From Candidatus Binatia bacterium (GTDB taxonomy: Bacteria; Desulfobacterota; Binatia; Bin18), in assembly GCA_963666315.2 (NCBI GenBank), contig CAXXHG010000027.1:18794-82793 (forward strand): a DNA stretch of 64,000 nucleotides. Reading direction: 5' to 3'. The position numbers and the translations under genes were made by a program. This document shows, piece by piece, positions 4,333 to 60,700 of the stretch. How positions within the stretch are numbered: position 1 is the first letter of the stretch; every line of letters begins with the position of its first letter. The notes below the pieces were generated by a model. It did not search any database. It was given only the letters and a program-made list of their open reading frames with translations, and was not told the DNA's origin.

Positions 4333-4761
4333 TCATGTGACTACCGTCAGCCCGAGTCTTTTAAAATCCCGATCAAAACTCAAGCACGGAATATTCTCCA
4401 GCAAAACTGTGACAACGACAAACGACAGTGCGTCGCAAAACGATGATTTTTTATCTGTGCCCAATTGTCTGAAAACCTCCTCTGCCTGGCTCTGAATGGA
4501 ACCGTCATAAAGGACGAGACGCAGGGTGGGCTTGACGTGGTCGAGAAACTGTATGGCTCGTTCGTAGCTGCTGCGGTAACGCAGCAGCGTTGCTGTTTCG
4601 CTAACAATATCCCAAGTACTGTAGAAAACGATATTCTCGGCAACGGATTCTTCTACGAGGCTGCACGCACGTCCATGGTGCGCATCGTTTGAGTCTAAAC
4701 AAGCATAGAAGAAAGAGGTGTCACAGAAGACGTACGGTATCCCACCTCCTCGAAGAGTCAT
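4333..4761 (-). CDS. PIN-domain VapC toxin
   Basis: VFCDTSFFYA...SFCDALSF...SFDRDF; 4-bp overlap with upstream antitoxin. Confidence 0.88.
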   Translation of the reverse strand: MTLRGGGIPYVFCDTSFFYACLDSNDAHHGRACSLVEESVAENIVFYSTWDIVSETATLLRYRSSYERAIQFLDHVKPTLRLVLYDGSIQSQAEEVFRQLGTDKKSSFCDALSFVVVTVLLENIPCLSFDRDFKRLGLTVVT

Positions 4762-5030
4762 CTTTTGGACTCATGCGGATTCGGATAGCGGTGCGCCTTG
4801 ACGTCCGCTGAAATCTTTCTCTTTTGACGAGATTTGGACTTCGGCAATTGAGCGGTAATTGCGAGGAGGCTGCTTGCTGCCTCCCCACCCTGGGGAAGCT
4901 GGGCTGGGGCCTTGAGTTCCGCGACGACTTCTTGGCGGACGGTAATTTCGTATGTCAAGCTCGGATTGTGTTTCAATTGCTTCACCAACTGGGAAAGCTT
5001 AGCCCGAACCTGACTAATTGGAATTTGCAT
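4758..5030 (-). CDS. Phd/YefM-like antitoxin
   Basis: IPISQVRAKLSQLVKQL...YEITVRQEVVAEL; directly upstream of PIN gene. Confidence 0.78.
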   Translation of the reverse strand: MQIPISQVRAKLSQLVKQLKHNPSLTYEITVRQEVVAELKAPAQLPQGGEAASSLLAITAQLPKSKSRQKRKISADVKAHRYPNPHESKR

Positions 5031-5045
5031 GGTGCAGTCCTCAGT

Positions 5046-5077
5046 GAAAAGTACATTTAGTACAAAATATACTTTTC
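5046..5077. promoter_or_regulatory. putative TA operator (AT-rich inverted repeat)
   Basis: GAAAAGTA...TACTTTTC just upstream of antitoxin start. Confidence 0.45.
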
Positions 5078-5150
5078 AGAGCAATCTGTTGCAAGCGTGC
5101 GGAGATTCTGATCCGGCCCGTTTGAAACATTTGAAAAGTAGATTAGGGCT

Positions 5151-5249
5151 AATCCTACCCCGGCGCTACGCGCCACCCCTCCAAGGAGGGGAGATTAGAA
5201 GTATTCGCACCCCCCATAGTAGATCGGGTTAGCGGAGCCTAACCCGATC
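5151..5249. repeat. two adjacent REP-like palindromes
   Basis: CCTACCCCGGCGCTACGCGCCACCCCTCCAAGGAGGGG, then GTAGATCGGGTTAG-CGGAGC-CTAACCCGATC hairpin. Confidence 0.6.
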
Positions 5250-5426
5250 CCGGCGTCTCATCAGCCTTTGGCAACCTCTCTCATCCACTTTGCATCATGG
5301 GTTTATCCTGTCGCGGAGAAAATGCTTGTCTGGAAACTTTTGCCCTGCTGGTATTGTTTGATTGGGTAAGCGTTCTTGATAGTGATCTGGGACACGATTA
5401 CGCCAGCAGGAGAGAGAGGAAGAGTC

Positions 5427-5678
5427 ATGAAAACGTCAGTGTAGATGATAACCCTTGCAACGCTGGTGTTCGTGCAGCCGGGTCATGCCGCAGACCTGAC
5501 AACGTTCATTGTCAAACCCGGCGTCGGCAATAATACCTTTACCGCTGTGTTTGATGCCGTCATTGGTGAACGGATCACGGCGATCAGTTCGGCCGTCGGC
5601 TGTACCTTCGCTGTGGATGAGGAAAAGCTGGAGGGAAAAGGCAGCTGTTCAGTCGCTCTGACTTCGATTCTGGTTGAC
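5427..5678 (+). pseudogene. 5' fragment of secreted YceI-like protein
   Basis: RBS then MKTSV*MITLATLVFVQPGHA (signal peptide with in-frame TAG), beta-rich FTAVFDAVIGERITAISS; ends abruptly at SILVD. Confidence 0.55.
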
Positions 5679-6035
5679 GGTGATCTCGTTGCCGGCGACC
5701 AAGAGCAAGACGGCCATGGCCAGGATCTCGTCTGCCGATAACACCTGGTCCTCGTCCTCAGCCTGGACAATATGCGTAAGCAGGTCATCTTTGGGGTCCT
5801 TGTATCGCTGGGCGATGGCTTCTTGCAGGCAGGCTCGCATCTCGGCGTTGCTGCGCTGAATCTGCATCCGGACTGCTTCGTCCGTGGGGCGCGAGGATGT
5901 AAGGACCATATCTTTTGACCAGCGATTGAAGTCCTCTAGGTATTCCGACTCGACTCCCAACAGCTCAGCAATCACGGTCATGGGCAGTGGGGTTGAGAAA
6001 TCCCGAACAAGGTCAAAGGTGTCCCGCGTACGAAG
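5670..6035 (-). pseudogene. internal fragment of cytochrome P450
   Basis: [22 protein letters not shown]...PKDDLLT...LLLVAGNEIT (E to I helix); no N-terminus or heme-binding Cys. Confidence 0.85.
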
Positions 6036-15745: not shown

Positions 15746-16399
15746 CTAGATCGGAAATCTTTCCCGCATCCGCTCCCACCATTTCCCGAGGGCTGGTGCG
15801 GAGTCAAAGAGTGGTTCGTCACTCACTCGGGTGGCAAAGGTAAAGGTGCCGAACAGACTGAAGTCGGCATAGGTTAAAATCTCAAAGAGGTATTCATGCC
15901 CCAAGGCGACAGCCTCAAGGTCAGCCAAAACGGCTTTGAGGCGTGGGCGGGATTCGTCGCGTTTGGCCGCAATGTCTTCAAGCGTCGCACCGAACCGAGC
16001 CTCGCGGTTTTCACGGAAATAGTCTCGATCTACCGGCTCGATCTTTTCAAAGATGTCATACAGCATGACGGGAACGAGCGCTGGGTGCAGCGTGTTGTCA
16101 ATATACATATTAAAAAACCGGCAGGCTTCTTTCATGCCCAAGCCAGGAAAGAGCTTGGCTTCCGGGTACTGCTCTTCCAAATACTGTGCGATTTTCCATG
16201 AATCGGACACAACGGTGTCGTTGTCCTTGATGACCGGCACGCGATCCTGGTTCGAGAAAGCCAGTTTGTCCTTGTCGCAAAATCGAATTGGTATAGTCGT
16301 GTAGTCCAGGTTCTTATAACGGAGAGCTGCTTTGGTGCGTGCGCAGAACGGACTAAAGCGTAAGTCGTGGGCGCCGGTCAGGTCGCAGACTTCGATCAT
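15746..16399 (-). CDS. glutathione S-transferase family (beta-etherase/LigE-like)
   Basis: RFSPFCARTKAALRYK, RVPVI, DSWKIAQYLE, YFRENREARFG. Confidence 0.85.
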   Translation of the reverse strand: MIEVCDLTGAHDLRFSPFCARTKAALRYKNLDYTTIPIRFCDKDKLAFSNQDRVPVIKDNDTVVSDSWKIAQYLEEQYPEAKLFPGLGMKEACRFFNMYIDNTLHPALVPVMLYDIFEKIEPVDRDYFRENREARFGATLEDIAAKRDESRPRLKAVLADLEAVALGHEYLFEILTYADFSLFGTFTFATRVSDEPLFDSAPALGKWWERMRERFPI

Positions 16400-16527: not shown

Positions 16528-16974
16528 TTACTGCGTATCCATGCGTTCGGGATTGGCAATCTCGATCCCCTCGTTCTCAGCTGCTCGCAGTAATTGGTGG
16601 TCAGCACAGACAAATGTCAGATCTGCCTTGGTGCGTTGGCGAAACCACAATGCCGAGCAGAGGTGGATCGCATCAAATCCTCTTAACGCATGGCGTTGGA
16701 CAAGCGCGAGCAGATCAGCAAAAACGGCATCGGAGACCTCGACAACGACACATTCCTGCCATTCGTGCTGAAAGCTGTCTACGGCAGATGTAAAACCACG
16801 CTCCGTTACTTCACGAACTCTACGTTTACGCGCCAAGGCAGCGAGCAGCTCAGCGTAGGCAACCCGCGAAGCAACGAGGATATTATCCGGGACAAAGAGG
16901 CTATGCACCCACGAAGAGCCCGCCTCGGAGTAGTAACGTTTTACAAGGGCGCTGGTGTCGAGATAATAGATCAC
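16528..16974 (-). CDS. PIN-domain VapC toxin
   Basis: YLDTSALVKRY...LRGFDAIHL...FVCADHQL. Confidence 0.92.
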   Translation of the reverse strand: MIYYLDTSALVKRYYSEAGSSWVHSLFVPDNILVASRVAYAELLAALARKRRVREVTERGFTSAVDSFQHEWQECVVVEVSDAVFADLLALVQRHALRGFDAIHLCSALWFRQRTKADLTFVCADHQLLRAAENEGIEIANPERMDTQ

Positions 16975-18815: not shown

Positions 18816-19478
18816 ATGTGTGGCCGATATAGCCTGACGTCGGATGCGGAACGGATCAATGCGCATTTTATCGCTCGATCTACGCCCTCTCCTCAGGCGG
18901 CCCGCTACAATATTGCCCCAACCCAGCCGGTCTGGGCTCTGGTCCATACGGATGAGCCCAAGATCGTCGCGCTGCGCTGGGGGCTTATCCCCTCGTGGGC
19001 CAAGGACAAAGCCATCGGCAATCGAATGATCAATGCCCGCTCCGAAGGGATTGCGGAAAAGTCGAGTTTTCGTCGAGCGCTACGCAAACGGCGCTGTCTG
19101 GTGCTCGCGGACGGATTTTACGAATGGAAAAAAGAGGGCAAGTCCAAGGTGCCGCATTATATTAGACTCAAGTCGGGCGAACCATTTGGCTTTGCCGGCT
19201 TATGGGAAACGTGGTCCGCGCCGTCCGGAGAAACGATACAGTCGTGTACCATTATTACGACAACACCAAACGCCTTACTAGCAGAAATGCACAACCGTAT
19301 GCCGGTAATCTTGCCGCGCAACGTAGAAGCCCAGTGGCTTGATCCGCATGTCGAAAACCCACAAAAAATCCTGCCGTTGCTCGGCCCGTATCCCGAAGAC
19401 GAGATGGAAACCCATGCGGTTTCAACCGTGGTCAATTCTCCGCGTAATGACGTAGCTGCTTGTATTGAGCCGGCTTAA
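18816..19478 (+). CDS. SRAP (HMCES/YedK-like) abasic-site-processing protein
   Basis: MCGRY, YNIAPTQ, WGLIP, INARSE, GFYEW, HNRMPVIL. Confidence 0.95.
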   Translation: MCGRYSLTSDAERINAHFIARSTPSPQAARYNIAPTQPVWALVHTDEPKIVALRWGLIPSWAKDKAIGNRMINARSEGIAEKSSFRRALRKRRCLVLADGFYEWKKEGKSKVPHYIRLKSGEPFGFAGLWETWSAPSGETIQSCTIITTTPNALLAEMHNRMPVILPRNVEAQWLDPHVENPQKILPLLGPYPEDEMETHAVSTVVNSPRNDVAACIEPA

Positions 19479-19524: not shown

Positions 19525-20117
19525 GATCATTTGTTAATGGAAGAAAAGATTCGGAGCCGGGTGCAGGGGCCCGGCTCCGCTGGGATAGAGGAGGGATGGG
19601 GAGAGTGTGTTAGTAGGCTCTGAAGTGGAGAGAACAAGTGAGTTGGCATGGGGCCATATGCCCCGGCTTACCAGTTCCCCAAGCGGGTCCACCTTTGAAC
19701 AGCTGCTTGGTCCACCAATTGGAGCAGTGGCCTCTCCCGATAAGCCATCACTCTGATTGTCTGCAGCAATGGACGTGCCAGAAAAGAATAGGCCGAACGG
19801 GCTAGACGCAGTTGAGTGCTGTCAGCCTGCAGCCGCGAGATGAACAGGTTGAGGCCGCCCTTGAAGCCGTCATCCTTGTAGACCCGAAGTGCTATGTTTT
19901 TCTTGGAAAAATAAAATAAAGCAACTTTGGTCCAACTCTGATTCAACTCTGATATTGGAGAAGCGATGGGCCCGAGCCCGGTCCCGGCCTGTACTGTTCT
20001 GACGTTTCTTAGCGAAAAAACCGAACGAGACCGTCCGCTTTCTGTTTGCAGAAACCTACAATCATGTAGGGAAATACCCACACTTTGAAAAGGCGGGAAG
20101 CAAACGTAGAGTGCCGT

Positions 20118-20651
20118 CTATTCTGACTCCGGCTCAAGATCAACTTGGGTTGCATGCAGAAAGCGGACAACCATATTGTAAAAGGCAGTGTTAAGACTCA
20201 GCTCGACAATCTGCTCTTCATCGAAAAAATCACGCAGTGCGTCAAAGGTCGCATCCGTGACACGCACCTGCTGGGTCATCCCGGTTGCATACCGAATCAC
20301 GGCCCGTTCCTGTGCATTAAAAGCTGGGTCGGTCTCCCAGTCGGCCAGTCGTTCGACTTGTTCGAGACGGACGCCGACCCGTTTGGCGAAGGCCTGGTGG
20401 TGGGTGTATTCGTACTCGCAATCAGTCAACCTGCCGACTGTCATGATGGCCAGTTCGCGCAGCCGTGGATCAAGTTTCGTGCGGTTGCGTAGCCCATCGC
20501 TGAAATACAGCATGCGCCGTAGCAGTAGGGGACTGTGGGCCACAATCCGAAAAATATTGCCAATTGAGCCGCGCTGTTGCAGCAGATCATCAAAAATATC
20601 GCGTTCGAGTTCAGGCAAGTCTTCTCGGTCCAGATAAGGCAGACGGGCCAT
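20118..20651 (-). CDS. carboxymuconolactone decarboxylase/AhpD-like protein
   Basis: LDPRLRELAI...CEYEYTHH...FYNMVVRF. Confidence 0.88.
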   Translation of the reverse strand: MARLPYLDREDLPELERDIFDDLLQQRGSIGNIFRIVAHSPLLLRRMLYFSDGLRNRTKLDPRLRELAIMTVGRLTDCEYEYTHHQAFAKRVGVRLEQVERLADWETDPAFNAQERAVIRYATGMTQQVRVTDATFDALRDFFDEEQIVELSLNTAFYNMVVRFLHATQVDLEPESE

Positions 20652-20685
20652 GGTATATTCCTTTTCTTCGTTATTGATCCGGCCC

Positions 20686-21471
20686 CTACCCAAATTCGGG
20701 TGGGCGCTTGGCTAAGAATGCACGCATGCCCTCACGCGCGTCGTTGGATAGGAATATTGATTTTTGGGTGCGGTACTCATAAGCGAGGGCTTGTTCGAGA
20801 GACGCTGTCGCGCCAAGATAGACGCCTTCTTTGATTCGAGCCAGAGTTTCGGCTGGGCCGGCGGCTAACTTGCGAGCAAAATTGAGGGTCTCTTCACGAA
20901 AACTATCCGCCGGATAGACGTGGTTGAGCAGCCCTAGCCGGAGCGCTTCCTCGGCTTTGATGCGATCGCCGGTCATCATGAGTTCCATGGCTTTGGCTGT
21001 GCCAACCAGGCGAGGCAGAAAGAAGAATCCGCCCCAGTCCGGGACAAGACCGATGCGGACAAAGCTTTCGGCAAAAAACGCTCGGTCCGAACCGAGTCGA
21101 AAATCGCAGCTCAAGGCGAGATTCGCACCCGCACCGGCCGCCGCTCCGTTGACTGCAGCGATGACCGGCTGCGGCATACGCCGCAGCAGTTGAACAACCT
21201 GGCTGCCCAGCGTCATCCGTTGTTCAACCACCTCCGTCGCGTTGTCGTCCTGGAGCTGAGCCATACTGGCGATATCACCACCAGCGCAAAAGGCTTTGCC
21301 TGCACCCGTAATGACTACGCACCGAACATCAGGATTTGTCAAGAACTGTTCGAGCTGACTCCGCAGCCGCTCGCGCATTCTATCAGTAAACGCGTTCATC
21401 ACCTCGGGCCGGTTCAGCGTCAGTAGTCCGATATGGTCAACGACTTCAGATAAGAGTTGCGTTTCGCTCAT
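20686..21471 (-). CDS. enoyl-CoA hydratase/isomerase (PaaG-like)
   Basis: AFCAGGD, AVNGAAAGAG, IGLVPDWGG. Confidence 0.93.
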   Translation of the reverse strand: MSETQLLSEVVDHIGLLTLNRPEVMNAFTDRMRERLRSQLEQFLTNPDVRCVVITGAGKAFCAGGDIASMAQLQDDNATEVVEQRMTLGSQVVQLLRRMPQPVIAAVNGAAAGAGANLALSCDFRLGSDRAFFAESFVRIGLVPDWGGFFFLPRLVGTAKAMELMMTGDRIKAEEALRLGLLNHVYPADSFREETLNFARKLAAGPAETLARIKEGVYLGATASLEQALAYEYRTQKSIFLSNDAREGMRAFLAKRPPEFG

Positions 21472-21541
21472 ATCCTTCTCCGCAGGAATTTGTCCATGCT
21501 CTGTCATTAGCACTCTTTGTAATAGGGGAGACGGAAGACTG

Positions 21542-22906
21542 TCACCCAATCAAAGCAATAAGTTGTGCGATTTCGTCTGACTGCAGGGTCTCCAGCATCT
21601 CAATAAGCTGAATGCACTGTTCAGTTTGTTTTGCATCAAGACGGACTCTCAAGCAATCCCGAATCTTGACCAAATGTTCCTCGTGTTGGAGTGGCGGAAG
21701 GCCCCAAAAGCCTTGTGGCCCGTCGCACCGAGCGGTGAGGCGTTGTCCATCTTGCAGTTTTACGGCGACCGTCACCCACATTTTCTCTAACACACCGGGA
21801 ATGGTCTCATCTTGGGTGAGAGTCGTGCGGGACAGGAGCGCCACGATATCTGACTGCGTACAGCGGTCATCAGAAAAGGTACGAATTGTCACTGAGCCGT
21901 CCAGGAGGGCTGCGGCGACCGTGTATTGAAAACTGAACTTGCCGTCCAGACCGTTCTTGGGTGCAGGTCGGTCTACATATGGCATAACCGGTGAAGTGAT
22001 GTGGACGGACGCAATTCGGTCTGGATTTGAAATCTGTTTGTGGAGATCCAGCCCGGCCAAGATGCCAAAATGGGTGCCATACTGACATGGAAACATCTTG
22101 ATGACAAAGCCTGGATCGACCATGCGATACGAGTGGCCCACACTCAGCAATTCGTCATAATTAAACCGCTCGCCAAAAAAATGCTCCACATAGCCATTGG
22201 GTGCTTCAAAAATCGTTGCGTTGCTGGTAAATCCACGCGCCGCCAACAAGGCGGCGTCCAAACCAGACATTGCGGCCCAGCCACAGTGGGTTGCCTTGGC
22301 CATGGTCCCGACATTCGCCATGAGCCCACCAGCTCGTGAAGCGGTAATGCCGAGCGCATGCTGAAGCTGTTCTTGGCTGAGGCCAAGAATATGGGCTGAA
22401 GCTACGACTGCGCCCATGAGGCCTACGCTGCTTGGCGGATGAACGGTGAATTCGCCAGGCACGTATTGGTGTGAGGCGAGCCGAATATGGCCTTGGAGTT
22501 CGCAGCCTTTGACAAAGGCGGAGATAATCTCTTGTCCAGAGACCTGTCTTTCCTGGGCTAAAGCGAGAATGGCTGGAAGAGTCGGCGACGTGGCATGCGT
22601 CGGCGGACTCCACATGGGTTCATAGTCCAAGACGTGCATGGAGATGCCGTTGGCATACGCAGCCAAAACCGGCGAGGTCCGAAATCCGTGGCCGATGACG
22701 GTCGCGATCTCCTTTCCGCTTTGGCTCTTCACATGCTCAGCGGCAATAGTCGGACCCTGTTCTCTCGCCCCGGCAACCGCAACGGCAATGCCGTCGAGGA
22801 TGATACGTTTGGCGACCTCGATAACCTCAGTCGGCAGTGTATCAAAGGCCATCCGGGTAAGGGTATCGCACAGCGCTGCTGTTACTTGAGGACTCTTCCT
22901 ATCCAT
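21542..22906 (-). CDS. MmgE/PrpD family protein, ACOD1/IRG1-like
   Basis: NGISMHVLDYEPMWSPPTH, HPPSSVG, KMFPC, YVDRP, SFQY...LLDG. Confidence 0.88.
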   Translation of the reverse strand: MDRKSPQVTAALCDTLTRMAFDTLPTEVIEVAKRIILDGIAVAVAGAREQGPTIAAEHVKSQSGKEIATVIGHGFRTSPVLAAYANGISMHVLDYEPMWSPPTHATSPTLPAILALAQERQVSGQEIISAFVKGCELQGHIRLASHQYVPGEFTVHPPSSVGLMGAVVASAHILGLSQEQLQHALGITASRAGGLMANVGTMAKATHCGWAAMSGLDAALLAARGFTSNATIFEAPNGYVEHFFGERFNYDELLSVGHSYRMVDPGFVIKMFPCQYGTHFGILAGLDLHKQISNPDRIASVHITSPVMPYVDRPAPKNGLDGKFSFQYTVAAALLDGSVTIRTFSDDRCTQSDIVALLSRTTLTQDETIPGVLEKMWVTVAVKLQDGQRLTARCDGPQGFWGLPPLQHEEHLVKIRDCLRVRLDAKQTEQCIQLIEMLETLQSDEIAQLIALIG

Positions 22907-22943
22907 GTTTTTGCTATTCAGATGGAAACTCTTTGATCTCTGA

Positions 22944-23120
22944 TTAGAGAATTGTCCCGGCGGTCTCTTTCAGAGTCTTATGCAAATGTACTCTCTCTTC
23001 TTCTTCGGCTGATAATATATTGATCGGCTCAGATTGTGTCTTCGCTTTACGGGCTTTCATCAGTTTGCGTAAACGAGTCTCAGGGACCCGGACTGTAAAG
23101 GCTTTTCGAGTTGTAGCCAT
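22944..23120 (-). CDS. small antitoxin/ribbon-helix-helix-like protein (58 aa)
   Basis: Read manually: MATTRKAFTVRVPETRLRKLMKARKAKTQSEPINILSAEEEER; AAGGAG upstream. Confidence 0.45.
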   Translation of the reverse strand: MATTRKAFTVRVPETRLRKLMKARKAKTQSEPINILSAEEEERVHLHKTLKETAGTIL

Positions 23121-23152
23121 GGTGTTTCTTCTTTACTCCTTGATAGGCAAGG

Positions 23153-24031
23153 CTAAGATTCTTTAAGAAATCTTTGCTGCAATTCTTGAATTTCAGGCAG
23201 CCCAATAATCTCTTCTCTCTCACGAAAAGACACCATGTCTTCAGCAATGGCTTCCGTATGGCCGTGCATACGGATTTCTGTTGCTGCTCGTTGCATAGCC
23301 CGAATAGCCGCACGCTGCAGATCAGACGGGACAATCATGATCCGGTAGCCGAGTGCGGCCAGCTGCTCGGCTGGCACAAGCGGGGTTTTACCGCCCCAGA
23401 ACATATTAATCAAAAGTGGCGCTGTGACTGCGCAGGCAATGCGCTCGATTTCCTCAATCGACTGCGGGGCTTCGACAAAAATCACATCCGCACCCGCTTC
23501 GGCGTAAACAGTCCCGCGCTCAACAGCCGCGTCTACGCCCAGTACAGCGCGTGCATCCGTCCGAGCGATCAGCACCAATTCGCTTGCGCCACGTGCCTCA
23601 ACAGCGGCTTGAATCTTCTGGACCATCTCTGCAAGGCCGACGACCTGTTTGCCTTCGTAGTGGCCGCAACGTTTGGGCTCTACTTGATCTTCGATATGTA
23701 AGGCTGCTGCGCCAGCGCGTTCGTAGGCACGAATGGTCCGAATCACGTTAATGGCGTTTCCATAACCAGTATCGGCATCGACAATAAGCGGCAACGTCGT
23801 GACGGCCCGAATCTCTTCCAACCGTTTGTGCATTTCCGTCAGCGTGACTAGACCAACATCGGGATAACCCATGCTGCGGGCGATAGCTCCGCCACTGATA
23901 TACAGCGCAGCAAAGCCTGCCGCCTCAGCAATCCGAGCGGACAAGCCGTCGTACACACCGGGCGCAATGAGGAGTTCCTCTTTCGAGAGTAGGGCTCGAA
24001 GTTCAGCCGGGCCTTGCGTCGATTGCAGCAC
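23153..24031 (-). CDS. isocitrate lyase/PEP mutase family lyase (PrpB/Dml-like)
   Basis: DADTGYG, HIEDQ, KRCGH, IARTDA. Confidence 0.92.
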   Translation of the reverse strand: MLQSTQGPAELRALLSKEELLIAPGVYDGLSARIAEAAGFAALYISGGAIARSMGYPDVGLVTLTEMHKRLEEIRAVTTLPLIVDADTGYGNAINVIRTIRAYERAGAAALHIEDQVEPKRCGHYEGKQVVGLAEMVQKIQAAVEARGASELVLIARTDARAVLGVDAAVERGTVYAEAGADVIFVEAPQSIEEIERIACAVTAPLLINMFWGGKTPLVPAEQLAALGYRIMIVPSDLQRAAIRAMQRAATEIRMHGHTEAIAEDMVSFREREEIIGLPEIQELQQRFLKES

Positions 24032-24035
24032 GGCT

Positions 24036-25589
24036 CTACTCCCCCCGTGCAAACCGCGCAGCATGACTGCCTGCCAGCCGGCCGAATACGGCGCCGCGCA
24101 TCAGGCCTGCGCCGCCGGGATAATTCAAATAGAAAAACCCACCGGTCATTTCACCGGTTGCAAACAGGCCGGGAATGGGCCGATCCAAGTAATCTACGAC
24201 CGCTGCATCAGTATTGATCCGAATCCCACCAAACGTGAAAGTAATACCCAACGAAACGGCATAGGCATGAAACGGTGGGGTATCGAGTCGGGTGGCCCAA
24301 TTGGTTTTCTCGGGTCGTAAGCTGGTTGTATGTTTACAGTCCTTTATATCCGGATCGAATTCGCCCTTTTGGACGGCTGCGTTATACGTTTCGAGCGTAG
24401 CCAGGAAAGCGTCTCTCCGAAAATCTAAGGCTGCGTAACGCTCTTCAATCCGGTCCGCCAGATCAGCCAGGGTGGCTGCGATAATGGGCGTGCCCGTATT
24501 ATAGCGGGTTTCTAAGAGGGACACGGTCTGCTGGTCAAAGACCTGAAAGATGGTGGCGCTGCGTTGCTGCAAAATTTCGCGGCCCATCTTGGCGTAGGTG
24601 TATAGATTGGAATCTTCGCCTTCGTCGACAAACCGTTCGCCGTCCAGATTGACCATGACCGAGAATGGGTAGGACAACCGGTTTGTTTTGTCTGTTAGGC
24701 GTAGGTCGCCGTAGATTGGTGCATCCGCGTCAATCGGCGTAGCATGACAGCCCGCCCATTCGCCATAACTTTGGGCTCCGATGCTTAATGCCGCCCGCGT
24801 CATCTCCCCGGTATTGAAACGCGTCCCACGGACTTTGACTAAACTCCAGCTAGGACCCAGATAGGCAGTGCGCATCTCCGGATTGGCCTGGAATCCGCCG
24901 CTTGCCAGAATGAGGGCTTGGCAATCTAGACTACGGGTACCGCTTGGATCGCGGACCTCAAGGCCGGTCACCCGACCGCCGGGGCCGGTCACAATACGCT
25001 GGGCTTGGGTTTCATACCAGACCGGAATGTCGGCTTCACTAGCCAACCGAAACAAAGTGCTGGAGAGAAGAACGCCTTCCCCTTTGGCTCGGAGCGCGCC
25101 ACCTCGGGCTAATTTTGTTTTTTGTTTGCCTGCAATAGTCACCGCGCCGACAGCGCGACTAAACTCCCATGCCACACCAAGATCGGCCATCCAGCGTACC
25201 GTGTCATACGAACGCGTAATCAAAGTGTGAATCAAGTCGGGATCGGCCCGTCCAGCGGTCACACGTTCAATATCCTGGAGGTAGGCCTCTTTCGTATATG
25301 AATCGACCACCACATCGCCGGGATCGTCATTGTCCCGGACCAGGGCAACCAGATCGTCAAGCCCATTATACGTGCAGCGGAACACGCCGCCGGTAAACCG
25401 GGTATTCCCACCGCGAAGTTTTTGAGTGGCTTTTTCGAGGACCAGAACCTGGGCGCCCTCGACCTTGGCTGCGAGGGCGGCCGTAAATGCGGCGTTCCCT
25501 GCGCCGACGACGATTACATCAAAGGAATCTTGGGAATCTAGTGTATCCTGAGACGAGTCAGACAATTCTGCATCCTCCTTCTTGGGCAA
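24036..25589 (-). CDS. tcuA: FAD-dependent tricarballylate dehydrogenase TcuA/CobZ-like
   Basis: GAGNAA, RGGNTRFT, GGFQANPEMR, RFVDEG, GITFTFGG, NYPGGAGLMRGAVFGR. Confidence 0.82.
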   Translation of the reverse strand: MPKKEDAELSDSSQDTLDSQDSFDVIVVGAGNAAFTAALAAKVEGAQVLVLEKATQKLRGGNTRFTGGVFRCTYNGLDDLVALVRDNDDPGDVVVDSYTKEAYLQDIERVTAGRADPDLIHTLITRSYDTVRWMADLGVAWEFSRAVGAVTIAGKQKTKLARGGALRAKGEGVLLSSTLFRLASEADIPVWYETQAQRIVTGPGGRVTGLEVRDPSGTRSLDCQALILASGGFQANPEMRTAYLGPSWSLVKVRGTRFNTGEMTRAALSIGAQSYGEWAGCHATPIDADAPIYGDLRLTDKTNRLSYPFSVMVNLDGERFVDEGEDSNLYTYAKMGREILQQRSATIFQVFDQQTVSLLETRYNTGTPIIAATLADLADRIEERYAALDFRRDAFLATLETYNAAVQKGEFDPDIKDCKHTTSLRPEKTNWATRLDTPPFHAYAVSLGITFTFGGIRINTDAAVVDYLDRPIPGLFATGEMTGGFFYLNYPGGAGLMRGAVFGRLAGSHAARFARGE

Positions 25590-25714: not shown

Positions 25715-26206
25715 ATGAATCCACGTGGAATGTCGCACATTGCCCTGTGTACGAAAGATTTTGATCGATCCATGCATTTCTATTGCGATCTGCTGGGCTT
25801 TCAGGTCGCTCAGAAAGGGACGACGGTAGAGCAGGGCGAATATCAGCGGGGGATCTATAAGAAGAAAGACCGAGAGGTGAAGTTTGCCATTCTGCGCCAC
25901 GGTGAGAAGAAAAACACGCCGTATGGGATGAACGAAGATGCTCCGGTCATTGCTCTTATTGCCCCCATTGGCGACCCGCCGACCGGCAAGAGCATTCTCG
26001 TTGACCAGATCGGCATTTCCCACTTTGGGGTGTGGGTGAAAGGCCTTAACAAGGTCCATAAAGATCTTGTCAGTAAAGGCGTAGAATTTGTCGCCCCGCC
26101 TCACGTCCTAGCCAAGACCAAAGACGGTACGATCCGGAGCGCGTTTCTGAAAGATCCGGACGGAATTATTATCCAGCTGGACGAAATGGTTCCGGCTCGG
26201 AAGTAG
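25715..26206 (+). CDS. VOC/glyoxalase family protein
   Basis: SHIALCTKDFDRSMHFY...LKDPDGIIIQL. Confidence 0.88.
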   Translation: MNPRGMSHIALCTKDFDRSMHFYCDLLGFQVAQKGTTVEQGEYQRGIYKKKDREVKFAILRHGEKKNTPYGMNEDAPVIALIAPIGDPPTGKSILVDQIGISHFGVWVKGLNKVHKDLVSKGVEFVAPPHVLAKTKDGTIRSAFLKDPDGIIIQLDEMVPARK

Positions 26207-39849: not shown

Positions 39850-40252
39850 TCTTCCATGGGGCACCGTCCTTTCACGGAGTACGCACCCACCATGATTGCA
39901 CACTTTTTGTGTGTAGGGGGGAGAAGACGCACAACCGACCGGTGCTGGCTCTCACTGACTGTTTTCTCTTGTGTATGGATCCAGGACCCTGGTAAGGAGA
40001 GCGTATGCCTCCCGTCATAGCGGCCCGTGCGATCGCCGTGGCACTGGCGGTTGGCCCTCGAAGAGGAGTGGCAGAAGGTCGATCATTGCCGGATCTTAAT
40101 GGGCGACGAGGTTTCACTATGTACGAAGAAGGCTTTTCAGCGCGGGTTGTCGAAAGTGGAGGACGTTGGGACGATCCCTTCGCGTCAGACACGGCGGCTG
40201 CCTGTCAGGGAAAGAAGCGCCCACCCGACCGCAAGAGAATGGTATCCCCCAC

Positions 40253-42104
40253 GTGACCCTACTCCCGAAGAACATTCTTATCCTCGCCGCCGCCCTGTTG
40301 CTCGGCGCGCGTCCCGCAAGCGCGCAACAGGTCCAGGTGCTGGAGCACGACACGGCCGAAGGGGAATACAACTCGTTGGTGCAGGTCGATGCCGACACCT
40401 ACGCCCTTGCCTACTCTGGCGCCGACAGCGACGGGTTCCTCAAGACCTTCACCATCAGCGCGGACGGCATGACCATCACCCAGGTCCAGGTGCTGGAGCA
40501 CGACACGGCCGAAGGGAAACACAACTCGTTGGTGCAGGTCGATGCCGACACCTACGCCCTTGCCTACTCCGGCGCCGACAACAACGGGTTCCTCAAGACC
40601 TTCACTATCAGTGCGGACGGCATGACCATCACCCAGGTCCAGGTGCTCGAGCACGACACGGCCATCGGGAAACGCAACTCGTTGGTGCGGGTCGATGCCG
40701 ACACCTACGCCCTTGCCTACTCCGGCGCCGACAACAACGGGTTCCTCAAGACCTTCACTATCAGTGCGGACGGGATGACCATCACCCAGGTCCAGGTGCT
40801 CGAGCACGACACGAGCCTTGGGCAGGCCAACTCGCTGGTGCAGGTCGATGCCGACACCTACGCCCTCGCCTACAGGGGCGCCAACGACGCCGGGTTCCTC
40901 AAGACCTTCACCATCAGCGCGGACGGCATGACCATCACCCAGGTCCAGGTGCTCGAGCACGACGCGGCCCTAGGGGCCGACAACTCGCTGGTGCAGGTCG
41001 ATGCCGACACCTACGCCCTCGCCTACTCTGGCGCCGGCTCCGACGGGTTCCTCAAGACCTTCACCATCACCGCTGACTGTCCGCCCGATCTCGTGCTCTC
41101 CAACCAAACGATGAGCGGGACGCAGGTCTTTAGATCCGCGAGCACGATGACGTTCGGGCCGAATATGACCGTCCCGAGCGGGACCGCGCTCACACTGCGA
41201 TCGAGGACAATTCGTTTGGAGGCGGGGGTTTCCATACAGTTGGGGGCAACGTTCACGGCTAACACGGACCCGGACCCCTGTGGGACTGAAGTGGACGAAG
41301 TGCTCGCGAAGGACCGGGTGCGTGTCTTTGCGGCAGGCGCCGCGGGGGAGGACGAGGGCGAAGGAGGATCGAATCTGAGGATGGGAGCGGGTGTCTATGC
41401 TACCGCTGCGACGGGGGGCAGAAGCCGGCAGCGCAACAAAGGCGGCGACGAGCAGCTGCTCGTCGCCGCCCACACCTTCTTACTCATCGACGAGGACTCC
41501 ATCGACCACGCCACGCCGCCAAACTTCTTCTCGGAGTTGGACGTGAATGCGGACATGGCCGAGATCGGGTTACGCGAACGGCTCCTGTTCTTCGCCGACC
41601 ACCCGGGGGCAGTCCTCACCCTCCCTACGGGCGAAGTGGGGGATGAAGGCTGGTTCGCGCTGAAGACGGTCCCCGCCTCGTGGGCCGCCGTGGGGCGGAC
41701 GGGCGAGGGGCTGCGCAATTACCTCAACGCCGATCCCGGCCTCGGCACCCCCGACCGCCACGGGAACCCGGAGGCGCTGCTGGCGCAGATCCCCGATGTC
41801 ACGCCGCTGCGCGCGTCCGGCCTGCGGCTATTGACGGGGAAACAGGTCTGCGCCGTGGTCTATGACCAGGATGTCCAGGTGACCTATGCGCCCTTAACGG
41901 GCAGCCTCCAGGGCGCGACGCTCGGGATTGTGGCCTTTGAGATCCTGGCCGTGACCGAATCGACAGCCTCTGCCCCAGCCGCCCTCCCGCAGGTCGAAAT
42001 CCAACTGTTGGATGCCGATCGATTGTGCGCCGAAGGAGCTGGCGCTGTTCCTCGATGCCCCGGAACCGTTCTCGTCCTCCGCACCCTTCGATGTCGTGCC
42101 ATAA
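40253..42104 (+). CDS. secreted multidomain protein: 5 x 51-aa repeats + beta-rich domain + IDEDSID domain (frameshift near 42033)
   Basis: Signal peptide ending ASA; tandem repeats; alternative frame gives LFLDAPEPFSSSAPFDVVP* ending at 42104. Confidence 0.8.
40328..41077 (+). repeat. five intragenic 153-bp tandem repeats
   Basis: Units start at 40328, 40481, 40634, 40787 and 40940. Confidence 0.97.
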
Positions 42105-42411
42105 CGGCGGTCGCGCCTATGTGGCAAATTTGGCTGCCGACACAGTGTCGGTGATCGACACGGCCATGGTGTCAGGTGGATCCTGACCGTAATTATTGAG
42201 GGGTATCGCCGGGCCCACTGAGACAGCCTCTAAAAGACGACGCCCGAAAATCAAAGCGAAAACATGTCCTGGACTCACTGTAGTCACGACAGAGCACGAT
42301 GCGGCACAATCAGGGATAACAAACAGATCATCCCCGCCCAAATGATTTCTGCCAGGAAAATCTCTTAAGGCCAAACAGCGGGGCTACGGACAGGTGGGGG
42401 GGATAACTCTT

Positions 42412-57789: not shown

Positions 57790-60700
57790 ATGAGACCGCA
57801 GAAACTCATTCTGAAAAACTTCATGCCCTTTCGGGTGACCGGAGATCAGGCCCACGAAGTGGACTTTTCGCCGCTCGACCTCTTTTCCATTACCGGACCT
57901 ATGGCAAGTGGAAAGTCTGCTCTTATCGACGCCATTGTGTGGTGTCTGTATGGCCGAACTGCCCGTTATGGTACGGATTCAAAAGGCGTCATATCAGCGG
58001 GCGAGCACACGTGCGAAGTCGCTTTGGATTTTACAGTCGGCAAGCGTTGGTTTCGGGCTGTACGCAGGACGGGCAAAATCACAGATTCCGGTTTGAGCGA
58101 ACGCGAAGGCCAAGGCGAAAGCGAAGAATGGATACAGGATAGATCCGGGTCTGCGTTGTTGACCAAGAGGATTGAAGAATTGCTGGGACTGGACTTCGAC
58201 AGTTTCACCAAAACAGTCATCCTGCCGCAGGGGCAATACGCCGAGTTTCTGACCAGCGAACCTAAAAAACGGCGCGACCTCTTAGCCAAAATTCTTGAAC
58301 TCGGCGTCTACTCACGTGTTGCAGACCAAGCCAAGTTCGCCGCAGCACAGGCCAAAACACGCGCGGAAACTCTGCGCGAAACGTTATTCCAATATGCTGG
58401 GCTGAGCCGGGACCACATCATCCTCCAGAAGCAAGAGCTGTCCGTACTCATCCACCGGATTGAAGAAATTTCTCAGCAAGAGCAGCTGTTACAACACGTA
58501 GGACAACAAGTCGACCGAGTCGCCGGACTACGCAGTCGTATAGCTGAGCTGCAGGCCGAGATACAGTCGCGTCAGCAGGAGCAAGAACTTGCCCATAAAA
58601 AGTCTGATGAAGCCGTCGCGCACGTGCGTGTACTGACGCAAGAGTTAGCGCAAATCAGCCAAGAACGGGAAGCGCTCGGATATAATGCCGCCCGCCATGA
58701 CATTGTCAAACGTGCCATGGCCCACCTCGATGAATGGGCCGTGGCGCGCCAAGAGGCGGATCAGAAAAACATTGAACTTATCCAGGTGCAGGAAGAAGTC
58801 GGCGCGCTGAGACAACAGATCACAGCCCACAGACAGCAAGTCGAACAAGGACAGCTGCAGCAAACGGCTCACACTGCCGCGTTTGAGCAAGTCATTGCCC
58901 AAACGGGCGACGTGACCGCCCTCACAGAAAAGCTTGGCGCAGCAAAACGCTGGAAAGAGCTGCAACAACAGCAACAAAAATTGACTGCGCACATTGAGTC
59001 CGTGCGTCAGCAACAATCGACTATCCAACAATCCCTGAATGACTTGCAGCAGCAAGCGGCTACGCACGAGCAGACTGCCCGGGAGCTGAAAGACAAACGC
59101 GAACGAGCGAAAGAAGACGCGCAGCAAAAGCGCCAATTGACGGCTGAAGCCGAGCTCCTAGGCCGAGAACTGCAAGAGGCAGCGAAGGCGGAGAAGCGGG
59201 CACAGGCGGAAGTTGAGACAGCGCGAGCCGCACTCGCCACAGCAGATCAGGCCGTACAGCACGCGCAGCAAAGCCTGGCCCAAGCTGAAGAACAGGAGCA
59301 GGCTGCCCGCACGGCGCTTGAAGACAATCAGCGTCTGTCTGAGGCTGCACACCTGCGCGAGACACTGCACATCGGCGACGCCTGTCCCGTCTGTCAGAGG
59401 GCGGTCAGCGAAATCCCAGTCGTGCCAGAGGCAGGAACTGACTCGAAGCGGTTGCGGTCTCAAATGGAACGCGCCACAAAGACTGCTGAGCAGACACGAA
59501 GGACTGCCCAAGAGTCACGTAGTGCGGTTGCGGCGGGCAAGGCTCGACTTGATATCGCGCGGCCGGAGTTCAAAGAACGCGCACGCACCCGTCAAGAAGT
59601 CCAAACCCGATTCGTGTCACGTTTCCCTGGATATGCGTCTCTTGCTGAAGCACTGAGCGCTTTACAAGTGCAACAGCAAGAGCTGATGGCTACGCTCAAA
59701 GACATTGAAGTCCAGACTGTGTCTGTTGAGCAAGAAAAAGCGAGACTGCTGCGCCAGCGTGAAACCGCGCAACAAGAAAATGCAAAGTTGGCCGAGGCGC
59801 TACGAAGCACGACGGAGAGTCTGGACAACGGTACACGCCAGTTGGCAGTGCTGGGGCGTACGCTTGTGGAATTTCTTGCTCCTGGAGAGGATCCTGAGCA
59901 CAGCGTGGCCCAACACCGGAGCACGGTTATTCGCGCTGAACAGCAGCTGAAAGAATCTGAGCAAGCCCTGCGTCAGGCGGAATCGGGCCTGAACACACTC
60001 AATACAACACACGTCCAAAAAGAGGGCAGTCTAGCATTGCTCGCATCTCAACACGATGGTGCGCTGTTACGAGCAAATCGAGAAGCGCAGGTCGTGCGAG
60101 CATGCTTTGATCTCGCTCAGGACGCATCTTTGCCCAAGCCCCAGGAAGTACACAACGAGCTCAACGCCCTTACGCAAAAACAGACCCTGCACACAAGTTT
60201 GTTGCCGCAAGAAGAGAAAATTCAGGCACGTCGAGAGAATGACGAACGTCAGGCGGCTGAGTTTCAGGCCGAGCTCCAGGCACGAGGGCGGGTGCTGGAA
60301 GAAACACAGCAGAAATTACGGCACACGCAACACACGCGCGAAGAGGAAAGGGACCGACTGCACGAGACGATCCGGCAACACAACCTCGCCGAGACAGGTG
60401 AAGACGGAGAAAATATTAAAACACAGTGTGAGACCGTACGCGCAAGAATGATAGCGCTGCAAGAACAACGCGGCCGGTTAGAAGCCGAACACGCAGAAGC
60501 AGAGCGCCGCTGTCATGAGAAGGAACACGAAGAAGAAAAGCTCCACGCAGCGGAAACCGAAGAACGCTTGGCATCCGAGCTGCGGAAGCTTTTAGGCGCG
60601 GAGTTTACCGACTTTCTTTCGCGTGGGGCGATCGAAGCCTTGATGCACGATGCCTCGGCCCATCTCCAACGCTTGACGCACGGCCGGTACGCATTCGACA

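Follow-up and report, generated by a model that had tools for sequence, protein, structure and literature searches.

The 64-kb window analysed here (the whole 64,000-nt stretch of Candidatus Binatia bacterium contig CAXXHG010000027.1, in whose numbering all coordinates are given) carries a five-gene operon around an MmgE/PrpD-family protein, here called PrpDl, which resembles the animal cis-aconitate decarboxylase ACOD1/IRG1 more than any other solved member of its family. PrpDl represents an uncharacterised subfamily, and its gene context is undescribed. We tentatively read the genes of this uncultured, apparently marine bacterium as an optional accessory catabolic operon of two separable modules, whose substrate would be a substituted succinate or a tricarboxylate in free-acid form. 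Gene identities are based on the open reading frame (ORF) list of the window and on profile searches with Pfam and NCBIfam, which place five minus-strand genes of the same orientation between 25589 and 20118, as the preliminary description of this DNA had claimed:

24036..25589, minus strand: TcuA-like FAD flavoprotein with the succinate dehydrogenase/fumarate reductase flavoprotein fold (517 aa; FAD_binding_2, E 1.6e-39)
23153..24064, minus strand: PrpB-like C-C lyase of the isocitrate lyase/PEP mutase superfamily (303 aa; PEP_mutase, E 1.1e-55)
21542..22906, minus strand: PrpDl, MmgE/PrpD-family protein (454 aa; MmgE_PrpD_N and MmgE_PrpD_C)
20686..21549, minus strand: crotonase-superfamily protein, enoyl-CoA hydratase/isomerase (287 aa; ECH_1, E 6.9e-64)
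20118..20693, minus strand: CMD/AhpD-fold protein, YciW-like (191 aa; Pfam CMD, E 1.8e-14)

Membership of PrpDl in the MmgE/PrpD superfamily is given by PF03972 and PF19305 (197 and 97.5 bits, cut-offs 32.1). Searched against all PDB sequences with phmmer, PrpDl matched mouse and human ACOD1 best (196 and 189 bits, E ~1e-56), followed by iminodisuccinate (IDS) epimerase (134 bits, 24% identity), BsIRG1, the 'IRG1' of B. subtilis (126 bits), and PrpD (38 bits). It scored under all three PrpD equivalog cut-offs (NF042438, 54 vs 950 bits; NF006943, 52 vs 575; TIGR02330, 38 vs 458). The HMMER alignment to human and mouse ACOD1 contains every motif pair quoted in the preliminary description, namely (PrpDl/ACOD1) NGISMHVLDYEPMWSPPTH/NGVAIHSMDFDDTWHPATH, HPPSSVG/HPPSVVG, PYVDRP/QYVNRP, SFQY..LLDG and GFW/GHW, together with the departure noted there, FPCQ in PrpDl vs FPAH in ACOD1. 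A 50%-identical Rhodospirillaceae relative of PrpDl scored 206 bits against ACOD1, and the other MmgE/PrpD paralog of the genome matched IDS epimerase best (129 bits) and ACOD1 at 97-105 bits. The ACOD1 resemblance is specific to PrpDl and far above chance.

An AlphaFold2 model of PrpDl was built from 133 relatives (pLDDT 94.9) and supersedes a 14-sequence model that was poor at the active site (pLDDT 72.6). In Foldseek comparisons, the model had a probability of 1.00 to all solved members and lay nearer to ACOD1 (PDB 6R6U, 6R6T, 7BR9; TM 0.90-0.92, 28-29% identity) than to IDS epimerase (PDB 2HP0/2HP3; TM 0.86-0.88), BsIRG1 (0.84-0.85) or PrpD (0.70-0.80). A scan of 1.84 billion cluster representatives with PrpDl gave 16,469 matches at E <=0.001, of which 2,167 were at <=1e-30. 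The low-identity filter of the representatives returned no eukaryotic sequences; one, P0194, surfaced through the signature table and is among the best 150 representatives (229 bits, 35% identity to PrpDl). Its sources annotate it as Branchiostoma floridae cis-aconitate decarboxylase-like; against mouse ACOD1 its score is 458 bits.

Two trees were built. In the first, a quick IQ-TREE run on 83 rows, the amphioxus IRG1 pair is sister to a 46-row bacterial clade (SH-aLRT 99 for the 48-row union), within which PrpDl falls in a 27-row subclade (support 97); in a FastTree of 147 rows, the pair lies within a 56-row clade holding PrpDl (support 100). On this sampling, which is biased in that rows were drawn from the 150 representatives nearest PrpDl, with a long amphioxus branch (1.62) and with A. 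terreus CadA, IDS epimerase, BsIRG1 and PA0881 outside the row set, PrpDl appears to group with the metazoan IRG1 clade as 'ACOD1-sister', and the ACOD1-proximal position on which the preliminary description had staked its case is borne out by the trees, the sequence matches and the fold. Bacterial IRG1-like proteins are already known: the available part of preprint 10.1101/2022.06.17.496652 puts alphaproteobacterial sequences next to metazoan IRG1, in agreement with the trees here, and such proteins are automatically named 'aconitate decarboxylase', as in the JGI names of 26 of 120 listed homologs of PrpDl ('PrpD' in 7 of the 120). For homolog P0020, the ESM Atlas gave generic 'MmgE/PrpD' and 'aconitate decarboxylase' bacterial clusters only.

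The kinship does not extend to the complete active site. The available text of Chen 2019 (PMC6789909) lists eight active-site residues of the human enzyme (hCAD), D93, T97, H103, H159, K207, K272, H277 and Y318, and reports that the natural variants Thr97Met and His277Tyr abolish or markedly lower hCAD activity and that A. terreus CAD differs at four of the eight. These residues were mapped through the PDB alignment, and conservation was taken from the 133-sequence alignment. PrpDl keeps six of them: D94, H104, H156, K204 and K270, the counterparts of D93, H103, H159, K207 and K272, are invariant, and Y310, the counterpart of Y318 in the lid domain, is conserved in at least 90%. The remaining two are replaced, T97 by M98 (Met in 133/133 sequences) and H277 by Q275 (at least 90% conserved). 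In the signature table, amphioxus IRG1 reads D-D-T...H-Y, like hCAD, and PrpDl and its nearest representatives read D-E-M...Q-Y. The PrpDl clade also has three added invariant Cys that set it apart from ACOD1, C208, C394 and C418, and in the model C208 would lie one helical turn past the catalytic Lys (helix 203-223). The conserved His/Lys set is common to PrpDl and IDS epimerase, but the column of PrpDl Y148 is variable, and PrpDl has no conserved helical-domain Tyr like Tyr145 of that enzyme.

The gene context was compared across the best 80 of 492 PrpDl-matching contig loci, which were screened by tblastn with the window proteins. All 16 loci at >=75% identity carry tcuA, prpB and the VOC/glyoxalase-fold gene that diverges from tcuA, with ech in 15 and cmd in 12. 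At 60-70% identity (16 loci), tcuA is found in 9, prpB in 5, cmd in 10 and ech in 2, and below 56% (48 loci) tcuA lies within 6 kb in four (L035, from Nitrospinota, L051, L064 and L073). The linkage to tcuA, a second point on which the preliminary description could have failed, is therefore conserved, and it reaches scattered Nitrospinota and Proteobacteria, including two cultured strains. The tcuA-PrpDl spacers are 18-27 nt in L020, L022, L023, L028 and L035, and several loci (L020 and L022, for example) have tcuA-PrpDl-cmd without any lyase. In many proteobacterial loci, PrpD paralogs stand in tandem and are accompanied by TctC, MFS or ABC transporters; PrpF is also present in one case.

In the cultured Paraburkholderia sp. 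PREW-6R, a plasmid carries, in order, an HTH gene, a tcuA-like gene, a PrpD paralog, an MFS gene, another PrpD paralog, a GntR gene and a 46%-identical PrpDl. On plasmid pPAN3 of the cultured Paracoccus pantotrophus DSM 11072, a 44%-identical PrpDl that neighbours an ABC transporter is immediately preceded by a PrpB-like gene. At a distance of 8-10 kb are two tcuA-like genes, after which comes another PrpD paralog. Both homologs fall in the 27-row subclade of the IQ-TREE. Two further observations concern these loci. The pPAN3 region 257000-283000 (L109), for which PLSDB has no annotation, contains a 20-kb stretch with three TcuA-like genes (44.6%, 44.1% and 31% identity), two PrpD-family genes, the PrpB-like lyase, AtuA, Ldh_2, a 2-hydroxyacid dehydrogenase and the ABC transporter. 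In L073, from an alphaproteobacterial metagenome-assembled genome (MAG) with a 50% PrpDl, a PrpF-family gene of the aconitate-isomerase type (4719-5933) lies directly 3' of the TcuA-like gene. Six loci (L003, L007, L020, L021, L024 and L025) are syntenic with Binatia-like genomes and are titled 'uncultured Enterobacteriaceae' or 'Klebsiella pneumoniae' MAGs; these labels look wrong.

PrpDl is patchily distributed. An ortholog (79-80% identity) is present in 9 of the 15 other genomes of the genus, and orthologs were found in 16 of 24 family genomes; matches (E <=1e-60) occur in 40 of 201 genomes of a class sample, and in a phylum sample the count is 8 of 201. Six congeners have no PrpDl match; five of these were examined further, and three (G297, G110 and G256) were read in detail. 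G297 gives single uninterrupted tblastn matches to tcuA (85%), prpB (82%) and ech (80%); of its PrpDl just the final 34 residues remain, and cmd is missing. G110 likewise keeps tcuA-prpB-ech, shows no trace of PrpDl or cmd and continues into unrelated genes; the tcuA-prpB-ech identities of these two genomes range from 71 to 85%. In G256 the cluster is decaying, with a tcuA fragment, a split prpB and remnants of PrpDl. PrpDl and cmd are also found without tcuA, in L021, L025, L026, L027 and L031. Because PrpDl-cmd can be lost with tcuA-prpB-ech intact and also stands without tcuA, the operon consists of two modules, of which PrpDl-cmd is expendable.

The TcuA-like protein passes NF006130 (PRK08274 'TcuA'; 490.8 bits, cut-off 369) and stays below the strict equivalog TIGR02485 (240 bits, cut-off 372). 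Of the marks of a tricarballylate dehydrogenase, namely both TcuA equivalog models and a TcuB partner, it has the first model alone: TcuB (TIGR02484) has no match across the whole genome (4.99 Mb, 47 contigs, 92.36% complete), and Pfam and NCBIfam found no transporter gene, TcuC-type included, within the operon, so that the reported absence of tcuB and tcuC stands. The closest solved relatives are flavocytochrome c fumarate reductases (113 bits), and the gene likely starts at TTG 25565, after the Shine-Dalgarno-like sequence AAGGAGG. TcuA-like genes without TcuB occur elsewhere. Their neighbours are the tricarboxylate transporter TctCBA in Deinococcus peraridilitoris and, in Bradyrhizobium, ETF and an ABC transporter together with a CoA-ester lyase and a CoA transferase.

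The PrpB-like lyase scores 310 bits against TIGR02317 prpB, under the cut-off of 354. It keeps the catalytic KRCGH loop with its catalytic Cys and all other motifs common to solved methylisocitrate lyases, and it departs from those enzymes in equivalog score and in one pocket motif, reading NMFWGGKTP in the alignment at the position of NMTEFGKTP. The altered motif is carried by 21 of the 25 PrpB-like genes of the scanned loci. We take the NMTEFG stretch, from the E. coli and Salmonella PrpB structures, to line the pocket for the succinyl carboxylate. If NMFWGG lines the same pocket, the side chain of the substrate would be less polar than carboxymethyl. This would speak against (methyl)isocitrate as the substrate, and with it against a pathway for tricarboxylates alone.

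The crotonase, whose start is probably downstream of the listed TTG, has a PaaG-like model as its best NCBIfam match (228.6 bits, under the cut-off of 345). The CMD-fold gene likely starts at ATG 20651, giving 177 aa, and its product scores 59 bits against TIGR01926 (cut-off 81.8). Its motif is C-E-Y-E-Y-T-H-H; it has no CxxC and so lacks the redox motif of AhpD-type alkylhydroperoxidases. In a 17-sequence alignment the mean column identity is 84% and the single Cys is not invariant (Ala in L019). The protein is better conserved than PrpDl, with 72-84% identity where PrpDl has 61-66%.

Under the favoured reading, module 1 would consist of the TcuA-like flavoprotein, the PrpB-like lyase and the crotonase. 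In this module, desaturation of a -CH(COO-)-CH2-COO- unit by the flavoprotein would give an enoate, the reaction that TcuA carries out on tricarballylate, and the Cys-dependent lyase would cleave a hydroxy-acid formed from the enoate, with a 2-oxo acid and a carboxylic acid as products. Module 2, PrpDl with its tightly conserved CMD-fold neighbour, would be an add-on: it would apply MmgE/PrpD enolate chemistry to this 1,4-dicarboxylate skeleton and broaden the range of substrates that module 1 can use. The gene identities, the clade, the conserved linkage, the loss by module and the residue pattern are results of the analysis, whereas we infer which class of substrate is used, in what order the steps run, which reaction each enzyme catalyses and what accepts the electrons of the flavoprotein.

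For PrpDl itself, a role as isomerase or epimerase of the substrate is ranked first, as possible rather than probable. The model for it comes from PMC12290011 and PMC9875883, whose available text describes the MmgE/PrpD protein of the Pseudomonas/Cupriavidus itaconate cluster as a free-acid (S)-(R)-methylsuccinate isomerase that is dispensable and extends the substrate range of a core pathway, and argues that an enolate mechanism acting on a 1,4-dicarboxylate skeleton is common to the whole family. The role is put first because the dispensability of PrpDl, its coupling to a stereospecific flavoprotein dehydrogenase and its accessory distribution would fit a methylsuccinate-isomerase-like function; an epimerase role, which the preliminary description had left standing as an alternative, is at least as likely as a decarboxylase.

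Several points weigh against this reading. The nearest characterised relative of PrpDl is a decarboxylase, not an isomerase, and all residues of hACOD1 that hydrogen-bond citraconate (His103, His159, Lys207, Lys272 and Tyr318; PMC12259180) are kept in PrpDl. Module 1 has no identified hydratase for a free-acid enoate, given that crotonases normally act on CoA esters and that no CoA ligase or CoA transferase is present in the operon. An epimerase is not needed for tricarballylate, which is achiral and, to our knowledge, the one substrate proven for TcuA. Finally, none of the readings considered accounts for the CMD-fold partner, for the crotonase, with no linked CoA-activating enzyme, or for the electron acceptor of the flavoprotein.

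The claim of an aconitate-to-itaconate function in the preliminary description would make PrpDl a true cis-aconitate (or alkyl-aconitate) decarboxylase that receives an enoate made from tricarballylate by the TcuA-like enzyme, releases itaconate or an analogue and is ancestral to the animal immune enzyme. Ranked second, this seems doubtful, and it is kept alive by the phylogeny and the conserved ligand-contacting residues: ACOD1 is the best solved relative by sequence (196 vs 134 bits) and by fold, amphioxus IRG1 joins the bacterial clade of PrpDl in both trees with high support, and the six kept active-site residues include every citraconate contact. A tcuA-like gene directly upstream in many lineages also agrees with it, and the dispensability of PrpDl and cmd suits an optional secondary-metabolite branch as well. 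Against it stand the Met and Gln at the T97 and H277 positions, where the variants in Chen 2019 harm hCAD, although the four differences in A. terreus CAD mean that these changes weaken the decarboxylase reading without excluding it. The TcuA-like protein fails TIGR02485 in a genome with no TcuB match, the linked lyase carries F-W in place of the T-E of methylisocitrate lyases, and PrpDl with cmd also occurs without tcuA. No itaconate CoA-transferase, citramalyl-CoA lyase or exporter was found linked to the operon by Pfam or NCBIfam, and cis-aconitate enters the tricarboxylic acid (TCA) cycle directly, so that a catabolic detour through itaconate would bring no obvious gain. With these replacements, the failed equivalog, the missing TcuB, the altered hydrophobic lyase motif and the loss of PrpDl and cmd, itaconate formation is not favoured. 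That the bacterial clade ancestral or sister to animal IRG1 already decarboxylates aconitate-type enoates is unlikely. For the 'bacterial relative of the itaconate-producing immune enzyme', the kinship in clade and fold is supported and the itaconate synthesis is not, and the preliminary interpretation as a whole is partly supported.

Ranked third, and quite improbable in our view, PrpDl would be a pathway hydratase running PrpD in reverse, in which the dehydrogenase is followed by hydration of the enoate to a tertiary hydroxy-acid and by PrpB-like cleavage. The order of dehydrogenase, hydratase and lyase is chemically complete and fits the gene set, the (de)hydration between 2-methylcitrate and 2-methyl-cis-aconitate is the founding activity of the family in the available part of PMC12290011, and the PrpB-like gene of Paracoccus lies directly upstream of the PrpDl homolog. 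The reading is weakened by the intact tcuA-prpB-ech clusters of G297 and G110, which are unexpected after loss of an essential middle step, by the 38-54 bits of PrpDl against PrpD models and structures and by the tcuA-PrpDl-cmd loci that have no lyase (L020 and L022). A last reading, in which genome packing in one lineage has made the genes mere neighbours, each with a function of its own, could draw on the 246-nt gap between prpB and PrpDl and on the infrequent tcuA link outside Binatia-like genomes (4 of the 48 loci below 56% identity, within 6 kb). We consider this most improbable: with only two PRK08274-type and two MmgE/PrpD genes per 4.99 Mb, repeated chance adjacency in Binatia-like genomes, Nitrospinota, Alpha- and Betaproteobacteria is very unlikely, and the short tcuA-PrpDl spacers of five loci also speak against it.

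Set beside known systems, PrpDl shares fold, best sequence match, clade and six active-site equivalents with metazoan ACOD1/IRG1. It differs in being bacterial and in its operon partners, which are a flavoprotein, a lyase, a crotonase and a CMD-fold protein. The methylsuccinate isomerase (PA0881 and its Cupriavidus/Paraburkholderia homologs), as given in the available text of PMC12290011 and PMC9875883, is likewise a bacterial MmgE/PrpD protein and a dispensable, range-widening add-on with an adjoining dehydrogenase and VOC-fold gene; it acts on a free 2-substituted succinate, as is proposed for PrpDl. It differs in that its closest structure is IDS epimerase (de Witt 2023, available part), whereas that of PrpDl is ACOD1, an indirect contrast drawn from structures, and in that its cluster uses CoA chemistry (Ict, Ich, Ccl and an acyl-CoA dehydrogenase), none of which Pfam or NCBIfam found in the PrpDl operon or its flanks. 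The window shares a PRK08274-passing FAD flavoprotein with Salmonella TcuABC, but its gene is linked to a lyase and an MmgE/PrpD protein rather than to TcuB and a TcuC-type transporter. With the methylcitrate cycle it has in common an MmgE/PrpD protein paired with an isocitrate lyase-superfamily lyase bearing the KRCGH loop; it differs in that both proteins score under their equivalog cut-offs, a methylcitrate synthase is missing from the linked genes, and the lyase has NMFWGG instead of NMTEFG.

The available text of PMC12290011 counts five characterised MmgE/PrpD activities, those of PrpD, fungal CAD, animal CAD, IDS epimerase and methylsuccinate isomerase. Literature searches, with the supplements of the cited papers outside their coverage, found no publication joining TcuA or tricarballylate dehydrogenase with MmgE/PrpD proteins and no published account of the unusual lyase, of the CMD-fold partner or of the natural deletions. 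For the bacterial clade closest to animal IRG1, the window supplies a conserved gene context, with a TcuA-like dehydrogenase, a Cys-dependent lyase with an odd pocket and a CMD-fold partner, and the natural deletions of PrpDl together with the homologous clusters of two cultured strains make the function of the clade directly testable. This bears on the standing question of which activity the IRG1 ancestor had before its recruitment to animal immunity, and the gene context also points to a route for substituted succinates or tricarboxylates that is independent of CoA and undescribed. If the ancestral or sister clade did decarboxylate, the TcuA-like/PrpDl pair would allow bacteria to convert tricarballylate-type acids into itaconate or alkyl-itaconates, and ancestral immune-enzyme chemistry would be accessible in cultured Paracoccus and Paraburkholderia.

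The second TcuA-like paralog of the genome (C24 93348-94814, L095 7349-8815; 447.7 bits vs NF006130) lies directly 3' of a 4Fe-4S ferredoxin and an aldehyde:ferredoxin oxidoreductase. Downstream of it, the opposite strand carries genes for a VOC/glyoxalase protein, a family III CoA-transferase and a crotonase. The TcuA-like/VOC pairing thus recurs. The second MmgE/PrpD gene (C36 86952-88325, L096 6953-8326) lies among four luciferase-like monooxygenases, a family III CoA-transferase, an acyl-CoA dehydrogenase and SDRs; it was considered as a canonical PrpD in a prp operon and rejected on these neighbours and its IDS-epimerase-like score.

The flanks of the window operon hold two further features:

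25715..26206 (listed ORF from 25487), plus strand: VOC/glyoxalase-fold gene, divergent from tcuA (Glyoxalase, E 1.3e-14)
19552..19579, minus strand: terminator-like hairpin with a 10-pair stem, 9 of them G-C pairs, and a T-rich tail (consensus scan only)

The VOC protein gave only weak matches against the PDB, the best at E 7e-6 to an uncharacterised protein and Salmonella STM3117 at E 0.003, too weak a basis for the 2-hydroxyparaconate lactonase identity that was considered. The hairpin sits ~540 nt 3' of the CMD gene. Rfam found no family at its gathering score anywhere in the window (1-64000). The spacing between cmd and the SRAP gene (18816..19478) is ~640 nt in the window, ~530 nt in L003 and ~36 nt in most other close relatives; the interval 19580-20117, which contains a family-less 137-aa ORF and ends at the strong terminator-like hairpin, may be an insertion or a 3' untranslated region. 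This ORF (20081..19668) was rejected as a gene and is probably non-coding, having no Pfam or NCBIfam family and a 37% match in L003.

Elsewhere in the window, a PIN-domain ORF, possibly a toxin-antitoxin toxin, adjoins a glutathione S-transferase (GST) gene (16528..16974 and 15746..16399, both minus strand), and the GST has a weak beta-etherase-like match (106 bits vs a cut-off of 440). The G+C content of 40001-42000 is 0.644 vs ~0.55 elsewhere, and a 662-aa ORF (40166..42154, plus strand) spans this segment. The AT skew rises sharply to 0.283 in 58001-60000.

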